From positions 8,519 through 40,518 of the forward strand of contig SUPR01000020.1 in the NCBI GenBank assembly GCA_005191425.1: DNA of 32,000 nt, read 5' to 3'. Both the position numbers and the translations under genes were made by a program. Within the stretch, counting starts at the first letter, position 1, and every line of letters starts with the position of its first letter. The notes below the pieces were generated by a model. It saw nothing but the letters and a program-made list of their open reading frames with translations. It was not told the DNA's origin and did not search any database. The DNA comes from Candidatus Helarchaeota ASGARD archaeon Hel_GB_B. GTDB taxonomy: Archaea > Asgardarchaeota > Lokiarchaeia > Helarchaeales > HEL-GB-B. Shown here piece after piece: positions 4,918 through 26,498 of this stretch.

Positions 4918-6184
4918 CAGCCAAGAGTCTATTTACTATATTTTTTGCATAATCAAGTCTAAAAACATTATTTTTAATTAAAATACTTGAAACTTTTTGA
5001 ACCAAATCATCTGGAGCACCAGCTAATTTTGCTATATTTCGAGCATGTAAAGCCATATGACCTCGTTGAATTCCTTCTGAAACTAAGGCTTTTAGCGCGG
5101 CTAAATTTTGTGCAAGTCCAAGAGAAACTGCCACTTGTGCCAGTTCTCCAGCACTTTTAACTCCTAAAATTTTGAGCGAAATATTAGCCATAGGATGAAT
5201 TTTTGTCATTCCACCAATAATACCCAGTGCTATAGGTAATTCTAATTCTCCAATTAAATTACCGTCAGCGTCTATAGAATATTTACTTAGTGGTGAATAT
5301 TTTCCATTTAATGAAGCATAAGCATGTGCCCCAGCTTCTAGAGCTCTTGTATCATTTCCTGTAGCAAGTGCTAATGCTATTATTCCATTCATTATTCCTT
5401 TATTATGAGTTGATGCCCTGTATGGATCAACTTCAGCAAATGCTAATGCGTCCAAGATCCCATCGACAACTTCAGCGCCACCTAATAACTCTTTATCGAA
5501 AACTGCTCTACATTTTGCAATTCGATATGTTGCCAAGTTGGAAACAATTCTTAGATAAACTTTACTATCACATAATTGCTCAATGTATGGTGTAATTGCT
5601 TCTGCCATAGAATTGACAATATTTGCTCCCATTGCATTTAATACATCAACTAATAAATGGACTATTAACATGGCTCCCCTTTTCGTATTTAATTCTTTTA
5701 ACTGAATATCAATTGCCCCCCCATTTAGTTTATTTAAAGTTGGGTGCAGTTCATTAGCCATCTTTAATATTTGGCTTTTGTTTTTTAATATTGCTTCTTT
5801 TGCTGTAGAGATATCTTTTAAATGAGTGAGTTGGATTTGTGAAATCATTATAGAACTTACTTTCTCAGCTTGAAACCCCCCATGTTTTCGAGCTATTTTT
5901 GCAGCATTTGAAGCAGCAGCTACTACTGATGGCTCTTCAATGACCATTGGGATTAAATAATCTTTATTATTTATTTTAAAATAGGTTGCTATTCCCATTG
6001 GCAATTGATAACTCCCTATCACATTTTCGATCATTGTGTTTAGTTTGATAGATGATAAATAACCTAAATTACGTAATATTTTCAGGTCATCTGATGACAA
6101 TTTAACCAATTTTGCAATTAAATCTTGTCGCTCTTCAAGAGAATAATTATAGAGCCCAGAAATATCAGATCGAATTATAGGCAT
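4904..6184 (-). CDS. mvaA: class II HMG-CoA reductase
   Basis: ENVIG, EEPSVVAAAS, NAMGANIVN, HNKGIMNG, GNDTRALEAGAH, and C-terminal GIQRGHMALHA with the catalytic His flap, all class II features. Confidence 0.93.
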   Translation of the reverse strand: MPIIRSDISGLYNYSLEERQDLIAKLVKLSSDDLKILRNLGYLSSIKLNTMIENVIGSYQLPMGIATYFKINNKDYLIPMVIEEPSVVAAASNAAKIARKHGGFQAEKVSSIMISQIQLTHLKDISTAKEAILKNKSQILKMANELHPTLNKLNGGAIDIQLKELNTKRGAMLIVHLLVDVLNAMGANIVNSMAEAITPYIEQLCDSKVYLRIVSNLATYRIAKCRAVFDKELLGGAEVVDGILDALAFAEVDPYRASTHNKGIMNGIIALALATGNDTRALEAGAHAYASLNGKYSPLSKYSIDADGNLIGELELPIALGIIGGMTKIHPMANISLKILGVKSAGELAQVAVSLGLAQNLAALKALVSEGIQRGHMALHARNIAKLAGAPDDLVQKVSSILIKNNVFRLDYAKNIVNRLLAGEKL

Positions 6185-6190
6185 AATAAT

Positions 6191-6196
6191 TCACCT
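6191..6196 (-). promoter_or_regulatory. archaeal-type Shine-Dalgarno AGGTGA for HMGR, overlapping the upstream stop codon
   Basis: Minus strand reads AAAAGGTGAATTATTATG. The TGA is the decarboxylase stop and the ATG follows 6 nt later, suggesting translational coupling. Confidence 0.65.
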
Positions 6197-7420
6197 TTTA
6201 TTATTTTCAACAAATTTTTCTATATCTTCTTTTATTAAATTTGCTTCAAAAGAATTTTCGTCAATTATTTTAGAGGGCCCTGCTATTTTCCCCTCACTTA
6301 AATTGAAATTTTGGTTTAATTCTTTAATTCTTTTTATAACCTTATTTTTATTATTTATTAATGTTAACAAAACCACAGAAGGCCCGGTATCAATTGAATA
6401 ATAGACACCAGGTATTTTTTCAATACAAGACATTATTTTTAATGTATCATAAGTCCATGCAAAAAACTTTTTATGATACCTTAGTTTAGCTGTCATTGAA
6501 ACTGAATGTAGTGCCAATGTATCTGTTTCTGTTAATTCCCCTATTTTTTCAAAATTTTTTTCATTTAATGCTTCAATAAATTTAAAGACCATATTACACC
6601 TATTTAATGCCCAAGATTTGTAGAAAGGAGATTTTAAAGCAATCTTGTGGGCTTGATCCGTTTTTAATTTCGATTGCAAGGGAATTGTTATTAGAGTAAT
6701 ATTATTTAACCAAGAACTAATTTCATCCCTATCAAGTCTTATCGCATATGAGTCATAAGAATCTATTTTTGGATGATTCAACCAAATTGCAATACCACCA
6801 GCAGCACTCCTGGATGCAGAGCCAGATAAATACCTTGAAAAAATACTTATTAATCTCTTATTCTCAGTAAATTCTGGTCGACCATTATATATTATAGAAA
6901 TTGCTGCTGTTGCTAATGCTGCACCACCTGAGGCTGATGTCCCTAGTCCTTTTCCTTCAATTGAAGATGTAATAATAGAATTTTTATTCTTTAAAATTTT
7001 TAAAAAGTTTCTTGAAACAATTATTGCTTTAGTCTTAATTTTTGAGAATTTTCGGATTACATCTAATAAATTTACTATTCTTTCTAATTTCTTTCCTTTT
7101 AATTTCTTCCCATTTAAATATGCAATGTCTTTTTTTAAATTTGGGCTGAATTTTAAATATGATACAGTAAAACCAGAACCATTATTTAATGAAATACTTG
7201 GAAAATAAGCAATCCTTTCTTTAATGTCTGCAAGTCCATGATATTTTAAAAGCCCCTGGATTGGATACGCAATTGAATAGGCTTCACCAGATTTATTTAT
7301 CCCTCTATGGCTTTTTGGTATTTCATAATTAAAATATTGATTTTTTTTTAAGTAATTGTAAATTTTTTGATAATCTAATTCTAATTTTTTAATAAAAGAA
7401 TCTGTAAAATTAATAATCAT
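6191..7420 (-). CDS. mvaD: GHMP-family decarboxylase, most like haloarchaea-type phosphomevalonate decarboxylase, with a ~45-aa N-terminal extension
   Basis: AYPIQGLLKYHG resembles the haloarchaeal AHPIQGLVKYHG motif rather than classical NIAxIKYWG; also GLGTSASGGAA, SGSASRS, SIDTGPSV. Lies in an operon with mvk and ipk; no phosphomevalonate kinase in the cluster. Confidence 0.8.
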   Translation of the reverse strand: MIINFTDSFIKKLELDYQKIYNYLKKNQYFNYEIPKSHRGINKSGEAYSIAYPIQGLLKYHGLADIKERIAYFPSISLNNGSGFTVSYLKFSPNLKKDIAYLNGKKLKGKKLERIVNLLDVIRKFSKIKTKAIIVSRNFLKILKNKNSIITSSIEGKGLGTSASGGAALATAAISIIYNGRPEFTENKRLISIFSRYLSGSASRSAAGGIAIWLNHPKIDSYDSYAIRLDRDEISSWLNNITLITIPLQSKLKTDQAHKIALKSPFYKSWALNRCNMVFKFIEALNEKNFEKIGELTETDTLALHSVSMTAKLRYHKKFFAWTYDTLKIMSCIEKIPGVYYSIDTGPSVVLLTLINNKNKVIKRIKELNQNFNLSEGKIAGPSKIIDENSFEANLIKEDIEKFVENNKR

Positions 7421-20837: not shown

Positions 20838-20848
20838 ATAATAAAACT

Positions 20849-20875
20849 TCAGTTAACGACTCTCCCGGAGTCCTT
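20849..20875 (+). repeat. left arm of a 27-bp perfect inverted repeat (putative recombination site)
   Basis: TCAGTTAACGACTCTCCCGGAGTCCTT is the exact reverse complement of 22634-22660; 26/27 to 22703-22729 and 24/27 to 22565-22591. Confidence 0.92.
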
Positions 20876-20990
20876 GTGTAATATGCTAAACTTAAAAAAA
20901 ATTTATATCTCTATGCGCCTATTAAGAGAACAAGCTAGACAGGTCATTGAACAATGCAAAAAACAAGGTATCGAAATTGTAAATTGGTAG
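20850..20990 (+). other. silent alternative LRR C-terminal cap cassette (no own start codon or LRR N-terminus)
   Basis: Translates as QLTTLPESLCNMLNLKKIYISMRLLREQARQVIEQCKKQGIEIVNW-stop, colinear with the resident cap KLKTLPESFYILNNLIYLNIENNPLDESTIERLEELRSRGVSVYY-stop. Absent from the ORF track. Confidence 0.8.
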
Positions 20991-21217
20991 TTTATTCAAC
21001 ATGATTTCATTTTAATTTAAATTTGTCCTGTTCTTTTTCTATATTTTTTGTTAATATTTTCCTTTTTTACCTAATTTTATTTCATAATACAAATTCATAA
21101 TTATATTACATTCCAGTCTCTTTTTCTATTCAAGACAAAGTAAATATTATTTAATTTTGAAGATTTAAGTACCTTTTATTTCGGGTTAAAAATTCAAATT
21201 GGAGCGTGGTAATTAAT

Positions 21218-22253
21218 ATGAATATAGAATTGGTCAATAGATTAATTTTAGATGCTAAAAATATTTGTAATGCAGAGAATTTAGCCCCGTCTACTATTAA
21301 AAAAACTCAATACATTGAGACGTATTTTTCTAGGTATCGAGGACTTGACGCCCTCGGCTATAATTGAATGGGTCGAGCAGTATAGGTATGGTGCTCACAA
21401 CACAGAGTTAAGTCCTCATGGAAAAAATAACTACTACACCGCAATCAAATGGTATTTAGCAAGGGCTACTCTAGTAAAATATCCAAAAGAGGAATTGAAA
21501 AAAATCAAAAAAGTACCTGTCAGGCCAAAAGACCGCAGTGTGGACGATTTGGCACTAGAACACATCTTGCAATTTTCACCAAATACTACTTTTGAGCTGG
21601 CATTTCGATTGATAAGAGAGCGCGGCATAAGGCCGCATGAATTACTTTCAATCAGGGTAAAAGATGTTTCCAAGTCAGAGGAAGGTTATGCGGTCGTGTC
21701 ATTACAAGCAGAGAACCCCGAAGTCCCTTCAAGAAGGAACAAGACTGGCCCGAGGACTATAATATTTGTGCGAAATGCAGCTCGAATTCTAGAATTAGTC
21801 AGAGTGGTAGGTGCGGGTACAGGCCCTGAGGGCAGGCTCTTTCCATGGCGTCATGGAGTACTATCAGTTATATTCTGTAGAATGAAAAAAATGCAGGAAG
21901 AAGTGGCGAGAAGAGAAGGCTGGAACAATTTATATAGGGGTAGGTTATATGATTTAAGACATGCTGCAATTACAGAGATGTATGTCCATGGTTTCGTAGA
22001 CCAAGAAGTGCGTGCCATGGTCGGCTGGGCTCCATCTTCTAAGATGCCGGATATTTATGTCCACATCGGGACAAAACACCTGCTAGATGCTTGTAAGAGA
22101 AATGAAACAAATTACATAAATATTGAATCAAACAAGAGAAATTTAGGACTCAAGGAAACCCATTTCGGAACATTTAATAAAATAGTAAATAATTCAAAAT
22201 TATACAGAAAATTTCCGGACAACGCCAATGAAATTAATTTCTATATAAAGTAG
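21218..22253 (+). CDS. tyrosine recombinase/integrase with an apparent +1 frameshift at A7 (21299-21305)
   Basis: GIRPHELL (Arg), NKTG (Lys), YDLRH, MVGW, PDIYVH (Tyr nucleophile). The track ORF begins at TTG 21315, but an ATG at 21218 with an RBS-like GGAGCGTGGT encodes MNIELV...NLAPSTIKK in another frame. Confidence 0.85.
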
Positions 22254-22452
22254 ATTACCTACAACTAATTTCCAAATGATGTAAACAAAATAAGAACAAA
22301 ATTAGATTAAAATAAGGGATTAATAAAAGTAAGAGAGAAAAAAATAATTTTATTTAGTAAAAAGGCATGAATTGAAAAAATTATAGTAATATAATTTTAT
22401 TATAAGTAGCTGATACTCCAAATATCATTATTATTAAGTATTAACTACATTT

Positions 22453-22995
22453 TCAATAATAGACTGAAACACCTCTGGAACGTAGTTCTTCTAATCGTTC
22501 TATCGTACTTTCATCAAGCGGGTTATTTTCAATATTTAGGTAAATTAAATTATTTAATATATAAAATGACTCCGGGAGAGTCTTTAACTTATTGTCATTC
22601 AATTCAAGTTCTTGGAGTGATTTTAGGTCCCCAAAGGACTCCGGGAGAGTCGTTAACTGATTGTCCTGCAAATCAAGTTCTTGGAGTGATTTTAGAGTAC
22701 CAAAGGACTCCGGGAGAGTCGTTAATTGATTCCAGCTTAAATCAAGTATTTGGAGGTTAGTTAGCTTGAGTATGGGCTCCGGGAGATTCTTTAATCTGCA
22801 TTCATAAAGTCCCAGTCCCAATATTTTATTATCGTCCAATACCATCCCAAAAGTATCCCGTTCTATTTCATTTACTTTTGGGATTGGCTTACCAATCATA
22901 TTTTCCAATTCGGATATTATATATGAATTTATTTGTTTGGTCACATAATTTATTACATATTCATAATGCATATTCATAATGGGGATAATTTTCAA
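22453..22995 (-). CDS. leucine-rich-repeat protein (about four 23-aa repeats plus C-cap); probably the 3' part of a STAND-LRR gene
   Basis: Repeats of LxxLxLxxNxLxxLPESFxxL. Overlaps the NTPase stop by 35 nt. Confidence 0.9.
   Translation of the reverse strand: MKIIPIMNMHYEYVINYVTKQINSYIISELENMIGKPIPKVNEIERDTFGMVLDDNKILGLGLYECRLKNLPEPILKLTNLQILDLSWNQLTTLPESFGTLKSLQELDLQDNQLTTLPESFGDLKSLQELELNDNKLKTLPESFYILNNLIYLNIENNPLDESTIERLEELRSRGVSVYY
22565..22798. repeat. 69-bp-period tandem repeats encoding the LRR units, each carrying a copy of the putative recombination site
   Basis: Site copies start at 22565, 22634, 22703 and 22772 (24, 27, 26 and 19 of 27 matches to the left arm). Confidence 0.9.
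22634..22660 (-). repeat. right arm of the 27-bp perfect inverted repeat, inside the LRR coding sequence
   Basis: Plus strand AAGGACTCCGGGAGAGTCGTTAACTGA is the reverse complement of 20849-20875. Confidence 0.92.
22956..22981. repeat. perfect 13-bp tandem duplication at the NTPase/LRR junction
   Basis: CATATTCATAATG x2 (22956-22968, 22969-22981). Both ORFs therefore encode HYEY in different frames. Confidence 0.93.
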
Positions 22996-24904
22996 TAAGG
23001 TAATCTTTTAGATTTAAGAAGCCAGTAAAAGCTTCATTCAAATTACCGGCTAATTTATTCAGTATGATTGGGTTAATTTTATTGAAAATATCTTTATGGT
23101 TGTAGATTAAATTAATAAAATTTTTTAAAGAGGTAGACTGGGTGTTAGTTAAGAATTTATTTTGTGTTAAAATATCAAGGTCATTATTGATTTTGTTATA
23201 ATCGAGTTGATTTTTTAAAAAATATTGAGACAGAAGGAATGGGAGGTAAAATTTTTCGATTTGATAAAATTTTTGGTTATTAATAACGTTAATGTGGGCA
23301 ATACCCGAATTTAATAGATTTATTTTAAATTCATTTGGTATCTGTTTATTTATCAAGTATTGGTCAAGAATTCCAAGAGTGTGATTATCTAAAATGAAAG
23401 TTGTGATTTGATTTAGGTATGTGACGTAATTATCATTAAATCCAATGCGGAAAAGTAAAGTATTTTGGGCTGGGATGTCATGTCCTGTAGACACGTGTTG
23501 ATATCTAAGAAAAAGATATGTGAATTCTAGGAAGAAGGTGGGGTCTGGTAGTATTTTTGTTAATTTAAAGAGGTCATGTACCAGTCTTAGAAAATAAGGG
23601 CGTTTGCAATAGACAAATAGCGGGGAAGACTCATTGAAGTCAAGGTTATATTTTTTTAGTGCGGATTTTATTTCTCGGTCTGAGAATTCATCAAGGTTAG
23701 AAGAGTATGGATGGTCGTTTTTATAATTATAAATATAGCTTTTGAATTTAGTGTCTTGTCTTATAAGGTTGCTATAAACAATATTGTACCATTGGTTATA
23801 TCTTGAACTTGCAAAAATCTTAACATTTGAAGAATATTTAAAGGTTTGGAATGCAGAAATAATTTTATTATTATCTGAACATTCATCAAGTCCATCTAAA
23901 AAGATTATAATATTAAAATTTTGATTATCACTTAGATTTTTTATCAAATTGCACCCTTGATCCCAATCAAGTCCAAAGAGCCAATCCATTTGATAATTTA
24001 TATCTTTTCCCATATTGAAAAAGAATACAATATTATTAGTATTATCATTAATAGTAAAGAAGTTTTGGGCTAAATTAGAAAAGAGCCATGTTTTGCCACT
24101 CCCTTCAAGGCCCAGCAATACAAAAAATTTTTTATTATTGTTATTATTGATAAATGCTATTAAATTATTTTCGATATCACGGTTAACGTAAAATTTAGAG
24201 TCGAAAACAATTTCGTTACTCGAGTGCATTAATTCGAGTTGAGCAAAATGAATCTGAGCTTCGCTTAAATTTGATAGATAATTTAGATCAAAGGTAGATG
24301 GATTAGTATTATCAATATTATTTTCACTTCGGGAATTACTTATAAATTGTTTGAGCATATACAACAAATGCTCTATATTAAGATTAATAATATCAATTTT
24401 TTGAAGAGATGAATATATAATAGAGAAGTTATTTTGGAGGTTAGAGTAAAGTTGGTTAATATCTTCGGACATATAATCTTTTAATTCATTAAGAGAAGAT
24501 TGTAATTCAGTTTTCATTAAAGAAATATCATTTTTATATAAGTTGTAATTTTTTCGTAGTTCAACTTGAATAATTTCGCAAAAATCAGTGATAATAAAAT
24601 CGCCCATTTTCTGGTTTTGAGTTTTGATTAGTCCTTTTAGTTTTTCCAAGAAATTATCAAAAGTGCCATTTTTTTGGGGGTTTAGTATTACTTTTAGTCC
24701 ATCCTTTGAGACATCTCCTAGTAATTCTTTTAAAGGGGTTTGTAATTGATCCATAGAAATATTTATTCCAATATTGCTTAAGGTACTGGCCAAATATCCA
24801 GCAAGAGGGCCAGCTATTAATCCTACACTAACCCCACCTGCAACAGGGATTAAGATTTTTGCAAAAGTTTTTAATGCGTCCTTAATTTTTTTAATTATAG
24901 CCAT
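22961..24904 (-). CDS. STAND-class (NACHT-like) P-loop NTPase with N-terminal helical/hydrophobic domain; probably the 5' part of a STAND-LRR gene
   Basis: YVNR pre-P-loop, Walker A GLEGSGKT, Walker B IIIFLDGLDE, sensor-1 ASSR, CKRPYFL (GxP-like). Confidence 0.78.
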   Translation of the reverse strand: MAIIKKIKDALKTFAKILIPVAGGVSVGLIAGPLAGYLASTLSNIGINISMDQLQTPLKELLGDVSKDGLKVILNPQKNGTFDNFLEKLKGLIKTQNQKMGDFIITDFCEIIQVELRKNYNLYKNDISLMKTELQSSLNELKDYMSEDINQLYSNLQNNFSIIYSSLQKIDIINLNIEHLLYMLKQFISNSRSENNIDNTNPSTFDLNYLSNLSEAQIHFAQLELMHSSNEIVFDSKFYVNRDIENNLIAFINNNNNKKFFVLLGLEGSGKTWLFSNLAQNFFTINDNTNNIVFFFNMGKDINYQMDWLFGLDWDQGCNLIKNLSDNQNFNIIIFLDGLDECSDNNKIISAFQTFKYSSNVKIFASSRYNQWYNIVYSNLIRQDTKFKSYIYNYKNDHPYSSNLDEFSDREIKSALKKYNLDFNESSPLFVYCKRPYFLRLVHDLFKLTKILPDPTFFLEFTYLFLRYQHVSTGHDIPAQNTLLFRIGFNDNYVTYLNQITTFILDNHTLGILDQYLINKQIPNEFKINLLNSGIAHINVINNQKFYQIEKFYLPFLLSQYFLKNQLDYNKINNDLDILTQNKFLTNTQSTSLKNFINLIYNHKDIFNKINPIILNKLAGNLNEAFTGFLNLKDYLIENYPHYEYAL

Positions 24905-25127: not shown

Positions 25128-26498
25128 TTAGGAAGGTGGTTGTTCTTTTTGTCGAGCGAAGGGTAAAAGGTTTAAGACATTACGAGATGTAAGGGTATAG
25201 GGTGTATCAATTTTTCTGGTCAACAATTTGAAGTAGTTAATGGGTGGTAAGGGTTGTAATTGGGTACCGAGGATATCTTCGATGTTATCGCTTAAATTTT
25301 CGTCTATAATGATATAGCAATTTAGGTTAAAAATGCCAATGATATTGCCAGTTTCAAATTTTTTGAATTCGGATTCCAGTTCAGTTTTTTTAAGCCATAG
25401 TTGATCTCCGAAAATATAGGAGCTGAATGCATTAGTATCTTTTTCGATTCCGCCCATCATGAGCAGGAATTGGATTTGTTTTTCTTTATCAAGGATTTTA
25501 TCTTGCATTTCTTGGTAAATTTTTTGCAATGAGGTTTTGATTTCTTTAATTTTAGTGTTATAATCGAGAGGAGAGAATTGGCAGATCCAGTAGAAGGGAT
25601 AAGGGGAGTTGTTTAGAATATTAGAAAGATGGAAGGATTTATTGTAGGGTATTTGGTAAATGCGTTGGGTGGAAGTTAATGTTGGGGAATTTATTTCGAT
25701 GGACATTTTATTTAATTTTATTTTTGGGAAATTTTTAACGAGTCCGGAGTTATCAAAGAGGAGTGGGTTGGAGTTTAGGAAGGAGAAGAAGATATTTTCA
25801 GCGGAGATTTCATCATTAATAATATTGTAGTAGTAGCCGAGTCGTTCTAGGATATAAATGATACGAGTGAAAGTATCAATAAATTGAGAGATACCGGTAT
25901 TATATTTTTTAGAGTCCATAAAAAAGAAGAAATAAATAGAATAATCATGGGTTTGTTTTTCTACTTCAAAAGTGAACCTTTGGACATTTTCAAGTTTAGA
26001 TAGAGCGACGATAAAGGGGAAGATATCTTTAAAGGGTTCGAGTTCAATAATTTTAATGAAGGTGAACTTGTTTTTTGAAGGGACAACGAGGCACTCAGCT
26101 CTATATTCATAGAAGATTTTACAGAGGGGGTTAAAAAATTTGCTTGAGAATTTTAATAATATTAGGTTATTTAGAAAGAATTTATATTTCCAGACAATAA
26201 TTGGGAGTAGAAAATCCAGGGGGATGAGTGGATAGTAGACAATAAAAGAAGATGCGAGCATACAACCGTAAAGATGAATAAACCCGATATAGAAAATTAC
26301 TTTTGAGAGTTTATTTGAGAATTTATCGAATTTAAATTTAGAGAGTTTTAATATAACGAATAATCCAAGATATATAGTAAAAATTAGCAAGTAATAGGTC
26401 AAGTCACCTGTAATGGCGGCATAAATAGTAATATAGTAAAGAAATTGAATTAAATATGGTAATAACGAGGCTAGTAATAATATAAATAGTGCATACAC
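25128..26498 (-). CDS. hypothetical membrane protein (about four N-terminal TM helices plus a soluble domain, loosely VirB4/TraE N-terminal-like)
   Basis: 456-aa ORF. Soluble part has QFSPLD followed by a long helix and ends LTSRNVLNLLPF; no P-loop. Family resemblance is from memory only. Confidence 0.5.
   Translation of the reverse strand: MYALFILLLASLLPYLIQFLYYITIYAAITGDLTYYLLIFTIYLGLFVILKLSKFKFDKFSNKLSKVIFYIGFIHLYGCMLASSFIVYYPLIPLDFLLPIIVWKYKFFLNNLILLKFSSKFFNPLCKIFYEYRAECLVVPSKNKFTFIKIIELEPFKDIFPFIVALSKLENVQRFTFEVEKQTHDYSIYFFFFMDSKKYNTGISQFIDTFTRIIYILERLGYYYNIINDEISAENIFFSFLNSNPLLFDNSGLVKNFPKIKLNKMSIEINSPTLTSTQRIYQIPYNKSFHLSNILNNSPYPFYWICQFSPLDYNTKIKEIKTSLQKIYQEMQDKILDKEKQIQFLLMMGGIEKDTNAFSSYIFGDQLWLKKTELESEFKKFETGNIIGIFNLNCYIIIDENLSDNIEDILGTQLQPLPPINYFKLLTRKIDTPYTLTSRNVLNLLPFARQKEQPPS

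Follow-up and report, generated by a model that had tools for sequence, protein, structure and literature searches.

We analyzed a 32,000-nt stretch of DNA (henceforth the window) from Candidatus Helarchaeota ASGARD archaeon Hel_GB_B (GenBank assembly GCA_005191425.1, contig SUPR01000020.1, positions 8,519 to 40,518 of the forward strand), whose genome comprises 3.54 Mb on 182 contigs and is 93.7% complete. It carries two adjacent open reading frames (ORFs) that together have the predicted layout of a nucleotide-binding leucine-rich repeat receptor (NLR), interrupted by a 13-bp tandem duplication, and, next to them, a 1.74-kb segment that encodes a tyrosine recombinase and occurs in the opposite orientation in another genome, where it joins a different leucine-rich repeat (LRR) tail to the gene. 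The parts of the split gene are as follows:

22961-24904, minus strand: ORF A, 647 aa, with an N-terminal helical domain, a NACHT-like STAND NTPase and a winged-helix plus helical region (ORF list, Pfam, AlphaFold2 (AF2), Foldseek)
24215-24904, minus strand: N-terminal domain of ORF A, aa 1-230 (sequence, alignment consensus, AF2 secondary structure)
23495-24214, minus strand: STAND P-loop NTPase core of ORF A, aa 231-470 (alignment A3, AF2 confidence, Foldseek)
22956-22981, minus strand: perfect 13-bp tandem duplication, CATTATGAATATG twice (window sequence, Tandem Repeats Finder, alignment with contig L002 described below, shuffles)
22453-22995, minus strand: ORF B, 180 aa, with a linker, LRR N-cap, four LRR units of 23 aa (period 69 bp) and, as its C-terminal cap, 'tail B', NLIYLNIENNPLDESTIERLEELRSRGVSVYY (ORF list, Pfam)

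Domain architecture of the split gene and its ortholog

On the coding strand the junction reads, in order, AATTATCCC (ending TATCCC), CATTATGAATATG, CATTATGAATATG and TAATAAATTATGTGACC, the 3' flank also being given as TAATAAAT; the individual copies lie at 22981-22969 and 22968-22956. The occurrence of the 13-mer twice in tandem, first reported in an initial annotation of this DNA, is confirmed by the sequence itself and by Tandem Repeats Finder (period 13, 2.0 copies, 100% matches). No perfect two-copy tandem in the window is longer, and just one of 200 dinucleotide-preserving shuffles held any perfect tandem duplication with a period of at least 13. Its effect is a +1 frame shift: ORF A ends in LIENYPHYEYAL (ENYPHYEYAL) at a TGA stop that is a product of the shift, and the translation of ORF B starts MKIIPIMNMHYEYVINYVTKQ and includes MNMHYEYVINYVTKQ. 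Deletion of one copy gives a continuous frame of 645+167 = 812 aa, as had been calculated. The duplication falls in the linker joining the helical domain and the LRR N-cap, about 10 residues ahead of the N-cap motif, where the AF2 model has a predicted local distance difference test score (pLDDT) below 50 (residues 641-647). A short low-complexity stretch surrounds it, which Tandem Repeats Finder reports as a period-6 row at 22951-22978.

Pfam recovers PF24883 NPHP3_N in ORF A (44.2 bits, cut-off 24.8), with PF05729 NACHT (18.7 bits vs 26.7) and nSTAND_NTPase5 (26.5 vs 34) falling below cut-off, and LRR_4 (2.3e-19), LRR_8 (4.9e-18) and also LRR_14 in ORF B. The NTPase core displays a Walker A motif, GLEGSGKTW (265-273), that fits GxxxxGK[ST], and a Walker B motif, IIIFLDGLDE (332-341), that fits the NACHT-type hhhhDG[LIV]DE; G268, G270, K271, T272, D337, G338 and E341 are invariant across the 21 homologs of alignment A3. 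The AF2 model of ORF A, built from the homolog alignment (mean pLDDT 74.7, predicted TM-score 0.70; pLDDT 80-93 in the NTPase), shows a winged-helix region and a terminal helical bundle, and its top Foldseek matches in the PDB are Avs4, CED-4, the NRC4 resistosome, Apaf-1, NOD2, NLRP3 and NLRC4 (probability 1.00, E ~2e-6 to 1e-5). The likeness to Avs/AVAST, Apaf-1, CED-4 and the plant NLR resistosomes (8dgf, 2a5y, 9cc8, 1z6t, 5irl) lies in the predicted fold of nucleotide-binding, helical and winged-helix domains, whereas sequence identity is 10-15% and TM-scores over the whole model are 0.25-0.36; the sensors elsewhere are TPR-like (Avs), WD40 (Apaf-1) or plant-type LRR.

The N-terminal domain is predicted to be entirely α-helical (pLDDT 45-70), with a hydrophobic glycine-zipper helix at residues 17-42 (G24-x3-G28-x3-G32-x3-G36, i.e. 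GxxxGxxxGxxxG) and two long helices beyond it (101-144 and 147-194). The zipper is kept in distant homologs with the consensus LLPxAAGxxxGxxxGPxAG, G28 being nearly invariant, and an Atlas search with the domain gave sub-threshold leads alone, to NACHT N-terminal helical domains at 0.77-0.78. By analogy with the pore-forming N-domains of other STAND proteins, it may function as a membrane-active effector. The PADLOC defence models yielded no significant match, with no more than marginal P-loop signals (for the ortholog P0002, PDC-S01 2.6e-5 and mad8 9.8e-5), and NCBIfam offered no informative family for the protein. As modeled, the gene is NLR-like in the order helical N-domain, NACHT-like STAND NTPase, winged-helix plus helical region and C-terminal LRR, and its role is presumably in immunity.

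The sole close protein relative of ORF A is P0002, a 1088-aa protein from a Candidatus Helarchaeota metagenome-assembled genome (gene at 8001-11267 of contig L002), which aligns with the full length of ORF A (100% coverage) at 83% identity. It reads through the junction as ENYPHYEYVINYVNKQ / LIENYPHYEYVINYVNKQINSYIISELENMIGKPIPKVNEI (PHYEYVINYV), precisely the PHYEYVINY that had been predicted for the fused frame, and continues into ~17 LRR units. Effector, NTPase and repeat sensor are on one polypeptide in P0002, and are not so in the window allele. Homologs at a greater distance, with 23-30% identity, retain both the N-domain and the NTPase and are likewise single proteins, ending in FHA, LRR (plus TPR) or WD40 domains or in nothing recognizable. 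The initial proposal that the two ORFs are halves of one gene thus finds support in the 1088-aa ortholog, the AF2 model and Pfam; as the homologs examined for a two-gene arrangement with this junction are single proteins instead, the reading of a hidden gene stands.

The NLR layout put forward with that proposal is upheld; the accompanying premise that it is unusual among prokaryotes was overstated. NACHT-LRR proteins have already been described in bacteria, e.g. bNACHT16 (Kibby et al.; bioRxiv 10.1101/2022.07.19.500537), and Asgard genomes have been reported to encode NLR-type systems (PMC11291487), so that the architecture itself is of a known kind. With bNACHT16 the gene shares the succession of N-terminal effector, NACHT-type STAND NTPase and C-terminal LRR as well as the hhhhDGLDE Walker B, and its own relatives likewise vary in their C-terminal modules (FHA, WD40, LRR). 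It differs in having no PADLOC match, a sub-threshold Pfam NACHT, an archaeal host and an uncharacterized glycine-zipper N-domain.

L002 and the window also share their gene order: an OB-fold protein of 589 aa, a 456-aa protein, the NLR-like gene, a small ORF, the tyrosine recombinase and a HAD hydrolase. Flanking genes are 99.1-99.7% identical in DNA, indicating that the two genomes are conspecific or nearly so. In the NTPase part (window 22970-24904 vs L002 8001-9935) DNA identity is 88%, with a synonymous divergence (dS) of 0.31 and a dN/dS of 0.28, against a dS of 0.012-0.029 in three flanking genes; the last ~45 codons before the junction are again 100% identical. This comparison points to the divergent NTPase part being an old allele, either maintained or imported by recombination. 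The 456-aa protein directly upstream of the NLR-like gene (25128-26498, minus strand, same orientation) has several N-terminal hydrophobic helices, shows 99% conservation in L002 and matched no family in Pfam or PADLOC.

Alleles with one and two copies of the 13-mer

Three proteins make up the cluster of ORF A: P0003, the NCBI protein of the window itself (from the 40,518-nt contig), P0001 from JGI/IMG, and a partial ENA protein that stops short of the junction. P0001 is encoded on a separate 9,514-nt JGI contig, differs from the window at D313E, N424D and K564Q, and likewise has 647 aa ending in PHYEYAL. In three other studies (X1-X3), every Logan contig spanning the site falls short of the window by exactly 13 nt: that of X1 has 383 nt over 22864-23259 with 4 mismatches, that of X2 has 468 nt over 22777-23257, and that of X3 has 212 nt over 22928-23152 with 5 mismatches, the neighbouring X3 contigs being identical to the window. 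One copy is also found in the ENA contigs L031 and L032, which belong to the same allele family and show 3 mismatches in ~330 nt around the site. In the DNA alignment with L002 a single 13-mer is bordered by ~60 nt of identical flank on either side, so that the second copy represents an insertion in the lineage of the window. Identity across the junction between one- and two-copy alleles is at least 97.6%, and ~99% for X1 and L031/L032; all sequences examined have either one or two copies of the unit. Both alleles exist in nature. Exact-pattern scans of metagenome_contigs and genome_contigs for either form of the junction, and a related-locus search with the 647-aa protein, had no hits, which carries no weight because close relatives of this genome may be missing from those collections.

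The age of the duplication can be gauged from the adjacent recombinase segment, which shows 0 differences in 1,085 aligned columns between the window, L031 and L032. Despite this identity, the loci differ by the 13-bp indel, by the number of LRR units (5 vs 8), by a 26-bp deletion and by a 5' replacement. Structural change without point substitutions implies that structural change is much faster at this locus and that the duplication is very recent, and the open LRR frame downstream is consequently uninformative about selection. In L031 (1-6017) and L032 the 5' 1.8 kb of the gene, encoding the N-domain and NTPase, is absent and an LRR-only frame of 260 aa with 8 units is left. The sequence of L031 5' of about window position 23131 is replaced at a sharp breakpoint, with MarR-like, AbiEii and HEPN/MNT genes in place of the NTPase, and its 26-bp deletion breaks the recombinase.

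These observations fit best with one of the options raised in the initial annotation, a recent inactivating mutation: the 1,085 neighbouring nucleotides are identical to those of a one-copy allele, and the bridging contigs of three other runs are one-copy. We accordingly consider the duplication to be, more likely than not, a recent and non-programmed frameshift that uncouples or removes the LRR sensor, and the two-copy allele to segregate in the population, probably as a loss of function. The simplest route would be replication slippage in the ATGAAT-rich linker, which would have taken place recently in one strain lineage and cut the LRR sensor from the NTPase. It would be an ordinary loss-of-function or uncoupling mutation in segregation, as is common for costly immune genes, in a locus that appears geared to rapid change through its divergent alleles, variable LRR number and a recombinase inside the 1.74-kb invertible segment. 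Truncated and frameshifted NLR alleles segregate in plant and fungal populations. The present allele resembles these in that a recent indel presumably disables a highly polymorphic, immune-receptor-like gene that is otherwise undamaged and has intact alleles elsewhere in the population; it differs in that the host is a prokaryote and the sequences come from metagenome assemblies. Several points weigh against a simple loss of function. Contigs are what was examined, and as they hide minority variants a mixture within a strain could escape notice; the two assemblies with two copies may come from the same or related samples; the LRR frame is fully open downstream, with in-frame ATGs just ahead of the ORF A stop; the position of the duplication coincides exactly with a domain boundary, as one would expect of a split that the protein tolerates; and loss of function is itself something that we infer.

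A reversible ON/OFF switch, in which slippage toggles between one and two copies within a lineage as bet-hedging for a costly immune gene, would account for the presence of both states among alleles ~99% identical and for a site in a low-complexity stretch (the period-6 row noted above), at a locus with further devices of variation. It is nevertheless unlikely: two copies of a 13-nt unit do not make a hypermutable tract, none of the relatives examined has three copies or any other unit number, and no mixture from the same strain was seen among the contigs of a sample, the one-copy contig of X3 differing at 5 of 212 nt from the window, which the neighbouring X3 contigs match fully. Quite improbable, too, is a functional split into two translationally coupled polypeptides, a 647-aa NTPase and a ~170-aa LRR protein, that act in trans. 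Such a split would suit the position of the break, in a linker of low model confidence that connects the helical domain with the LRR N-cap; the intact LRR frame, whose ATGs at 22977 and 22971 precede the TGA by 8-14 nt; and the existence of a strain with an LRR-only remnant ORF (L031). However, every examined homolog carrying both parts is a single polypeptide, no Shine-Dalgarno-like sequence precedes either ATG in the window sequence, and in so young an allele the open frame says little of selection. Ribosomal frameshifting to rejoin ORF A and ORF B was rejected as a candidate: there is no slippery heptamer, and the required -1 shift would cross non-slippery sequence.

That the true sequence has one copy, and the second is an error of assembly or sequencing, was another of the options first raised and is now very improbable. 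All 3 bridging Logan contigs are one-copy and the organism is covered at low depth (~3-8), but the same truncation in two non-identical contigs, the 40.5-kb contig of NCBI and the 9.5-kb contig of JGI (three residues apart, each yielding 647 aa ending in PHYEYAL), argues against an assembler artefact, and a perfect 13-nt tandem duplication is atypical of short-read errors. Insertion and excision of a transposable element can leave a target-site duplication behind. The direct duplication with nothing between its copies, in a rearrangement-prone locus, would be compatible with such a footprint of a mobile element; yet no relative examined has an insertion at the site and no transposase is nearby, and we regard this origin as exceedingly improbable.

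The invertible segment and its recombinase

More remarkable than the frameshift is the recombinase-carrying invertible segment, which swaps the LRR tail of the gene. Its features are:

20850-22589, no strand: invertible segment, 1.74 kb, inverted relative to L002 11127-12866 (98.7% identical) and L030 93-1832, collinear with L031 and L032
22560-22589, minus strand: right boundary, inside the last full LRR unit, coding KLKTLPESF (L002 comparison)
20849-20880, plus strand: left boundary, an inverted copy of the LRR core (TCAGTTAACGACTCTCCCGGAGTCCTT), 11 nt past the stop of the HAD gene (L002 comparison)
20841-20990, plus strand: silent, start-less 3' cassette 'tail A', ending QLTTLPESLCNMLNLKKIYISMRLLREQARQVIEQCKKQGIEIVNW and a stop, 91% identical to the expressed C-terminus of P0002
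21315-22253, plus strand: catalytic ORF of the tyrosine recombinase, 312 aa (Pfam Phage_integrase, 4.4e-8)
21218-21367, plus strand: small ORF, N-terminal (core-binding-like) segment of the recombinase, its frame offset from that of the catalytic ORF at an A7 run (21299-21305)

The inversion emerges from three BLAST blocks between the window and L002: 29000->22564 equals L002 3905->10325; 22589->20850 equals 12866->11127, inverted; and 20875->19000 equals 12842->14717, 98.9% identical. Adjoining blocks share ~26 nt at their ends, in the form of inverted repeats of the LRR core that encodes QL(T/K)TLPES. A core of ~27 nt from the right boundary recurs in every LRR unit (22634-22660, 22698-22729), so that the left arm (20849-20880) pairs with 22560-22589 and also, at 27 of 27 complementary positions, with 22634-22660. 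A whole-genome search with P0002 placed its last 47 residues at window 20847-20987 on the plus strand (91% identity), i.e. in the opposite orientation to the gene and beyond the recombinase. The window has tail B in the expressed position and tail A silent, whereas L002 has tail A in the expressed position and tail B silent on the minus strand. L002 and L030 represent one orientation (A), and the window, L031 and L032 the other (B). In each orientation the constant part of the gene runs in frame into a 3' cassette of its own, and all genomes examined contain the two tails: inversion between strains thus swaps two alternative C-terminal LRR caps. Repeated switching was sought among these five sequences; the segment falls into two sequence clades, one for each orientation, so that one inversion event suffices and frequent switching is not demonstrated. 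Loose Logan contig ends near the LRR units were dropped as evidence for the inversion state, since they match neither the window's genome nor L002 and belong to other LRR genes or organisms.

The recombinase presumably catalyzes the inversion. By inspection it contains the motifs RERGIRPHEL and LRHAA and the tyrosine of W...DIYVH. NCBIfam gave XerA alone, far below threshold, PADLOC gave nothing for either the recombinase or the neighbouring 456-aa protein, and tblastn found no relative of the recombinase among 50,697 phage records. The frame break at the A7 run is common to the window, L002, L030 and the sister-species genome G004. Elsewhere the lesion takes the form of an A9 run (L025), an A6T6 run (L026) or an in-frame TAG (L022), and the gene is continuous in L024 and L028; these lesions could reflect either a slippage-based control of recombinase level or repeated decay. 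A second, decayed copy with several stops, 53-73% identical, lies at a contig end of the window's genome (G000:C2:134-705; L017, L018).

The LRR array also varies in length, with 5 units in the window, 8 in L031 and ~17 in L002. Logan contigs of X1 and X3 (over window 22564-22830) have joints going back 69 or 138 nt, which indicates that other samples contain arrays with one or two additional units. The array of the window might have been collapsed by assembly.

A precedent for such an arrangement is presented by the shufflon-type inversions, namely the R64 shufflon (Rci), the phage Mu G segment, the hsdS invertons and int1 of the haloarchaeal virus phiCh1, the last of which is cited as an invertible system in PMC8371274. 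As in these, inverted repeats in coding sequence delimit a segment that contains or adjoins a recombinase gene, alternative 3' cassettes lacking a promoter can follow the constant 5' part of a gene, and natural sequences show both orientations. The differences are that the target is a predicted cytoplasmic NLR-like LRR sensor of an Asgard archaeon rather than a pilin, tail fibre or hsdS, and that the repeat is the core of the LRR unit itself, such that any unit could serve as partner. A bacterial survey of gene-altering programmed inversions excluded archaea and lists no LRR targets (PMC9881135), and a review of archaeal tyrosine recombinases covers integration, large chromosomal inversions and phiCh1, with no cellular shufflon-type system. 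Asgard LRR proteins have been described as abundant and of unknown function (PMC13734099); our literature search found no paper linking them to a recombinase.

Recombinase-linked LRR genes in Asgard archaea

The recombinase has 42 database relatives, which come from Helarchaeota, Lokiarchaeota or Promethearchaeota wherever the source is named, and it adjoins an LRR gene in every locus fetched. Inverted LRR DNA flanks it on both sides in all seven distinct loci having sequence on both sides (window/L002, L020 of G004, L022, L024, L025, L026 and L028). The N-termini of the linked LRR proteins differ: a STAND NTPase in the window, SIR2-TPR in L022, TIR in L026 and PIN in L029, the others being unassigned.

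The nucleotide sequence of the LRR core behaves distinctly from the peptide that it encodes. The core ACTCTCCCNGA[GT]TC (the ACTCTCCCGGAGTC core) occurs 4 times in the 3.54-Mb genome, each time at the NLR-like locus, and N.L..LP[ED]S motifs number 29 on 12 contigs of the same genome, with similar peptides written in other codons. This confinement of the core to one locus, while similar peptides use other codons, resembles a recombination site embedded in coding sequence. Near-identical cores are found at recombinase-linked loci of other species.

Several of these loci show details of their own. In the sister species a homolog (L020, G004:C209, 3052-7134) with the same N-domain and an NTPase 25% identical is read as three ORFs, with a TAG right after the GKT of Walker A plus a further break; after it come the orthologous recombinase, at 65% identity, and a silent cassette with 3 LRR units in inverted orientation. 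Recombinases likewise follow the TIR-LRR (L026, 2514-6668), SIR2-TPR-LRR (L022, 4776-10589) and PIN-LRR (L029, 3389-5054) genes, among whose neighbours are GmrSD and toxin-antitoxin genes. In L026 the inverted LRR DNA appears to form two distinct cassettes (5437-5616 and 6195-6668), and this locus would then be a multi-cassette shufflon.

Taking these features together, we tentatively propose, as a reading that could well prove correct, that the gene belongs to an Asgard family of immune-type 'variable LRR receptors' with STAND, SIR2, TIR or PIN N-termini, in which a dedicated tyrosine recombinase inverts LRR arrays between core repeats and the 13-bp duplication forms a second, cruder on/off layer. 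If so, inversion would change the cap and potentially the repeat number, and the nucleotide core would be kept as a recombination site. The variable lymphocyte receptors of lampreys offer an analogy, and only that: they are assembled in somatic cells by a gene-conversion-like process dependent on cytidine deaminase. Both involve rearrangement of LRR-cassette DNA beside an incomplete or constant gene part; in contrast to the lamprey process, the present one would rely on conservative site-specific inversion, use two cassettes or possibly more, and operate in a unicellular archaeon.

By itself the frameshift is an ordinary event in a costly immune gene; its main lesson is that a complete NLR-style gene can go unseen when automatic annotation records it as two 'hypothetical' ORFs. 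The locus offers a concrete archaeal NACHT-like/LRR protein with an intact ortholog, and a natural allelic series in one species: intact, sensor-uncoupled and NTPase-less forms, with 5, 8 or ~17 LRRs. Beyond this, the comparative evidence indicates that in Asgard archaea one particular recombinase family is linked to the LRR ends of proteins that bear classical immune-effector domains, and as far as the compared sequences go this recombinase-associated LRR sensor locus is a conserved Asgard architecture that is new and testable. If the recombinase-driven variation is real, Asgard LRR proteins would gain a testable role in self/non-self recognition, and gene-altering programmed inversions, so far surveyed in bacteria only (PMC9881135), would extend to archaeal cellular genes. 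If these are indeed variable receptors, archaea related to eukaryotes would diversify a sensor of innate immunity through programmed DNA rearrangement.

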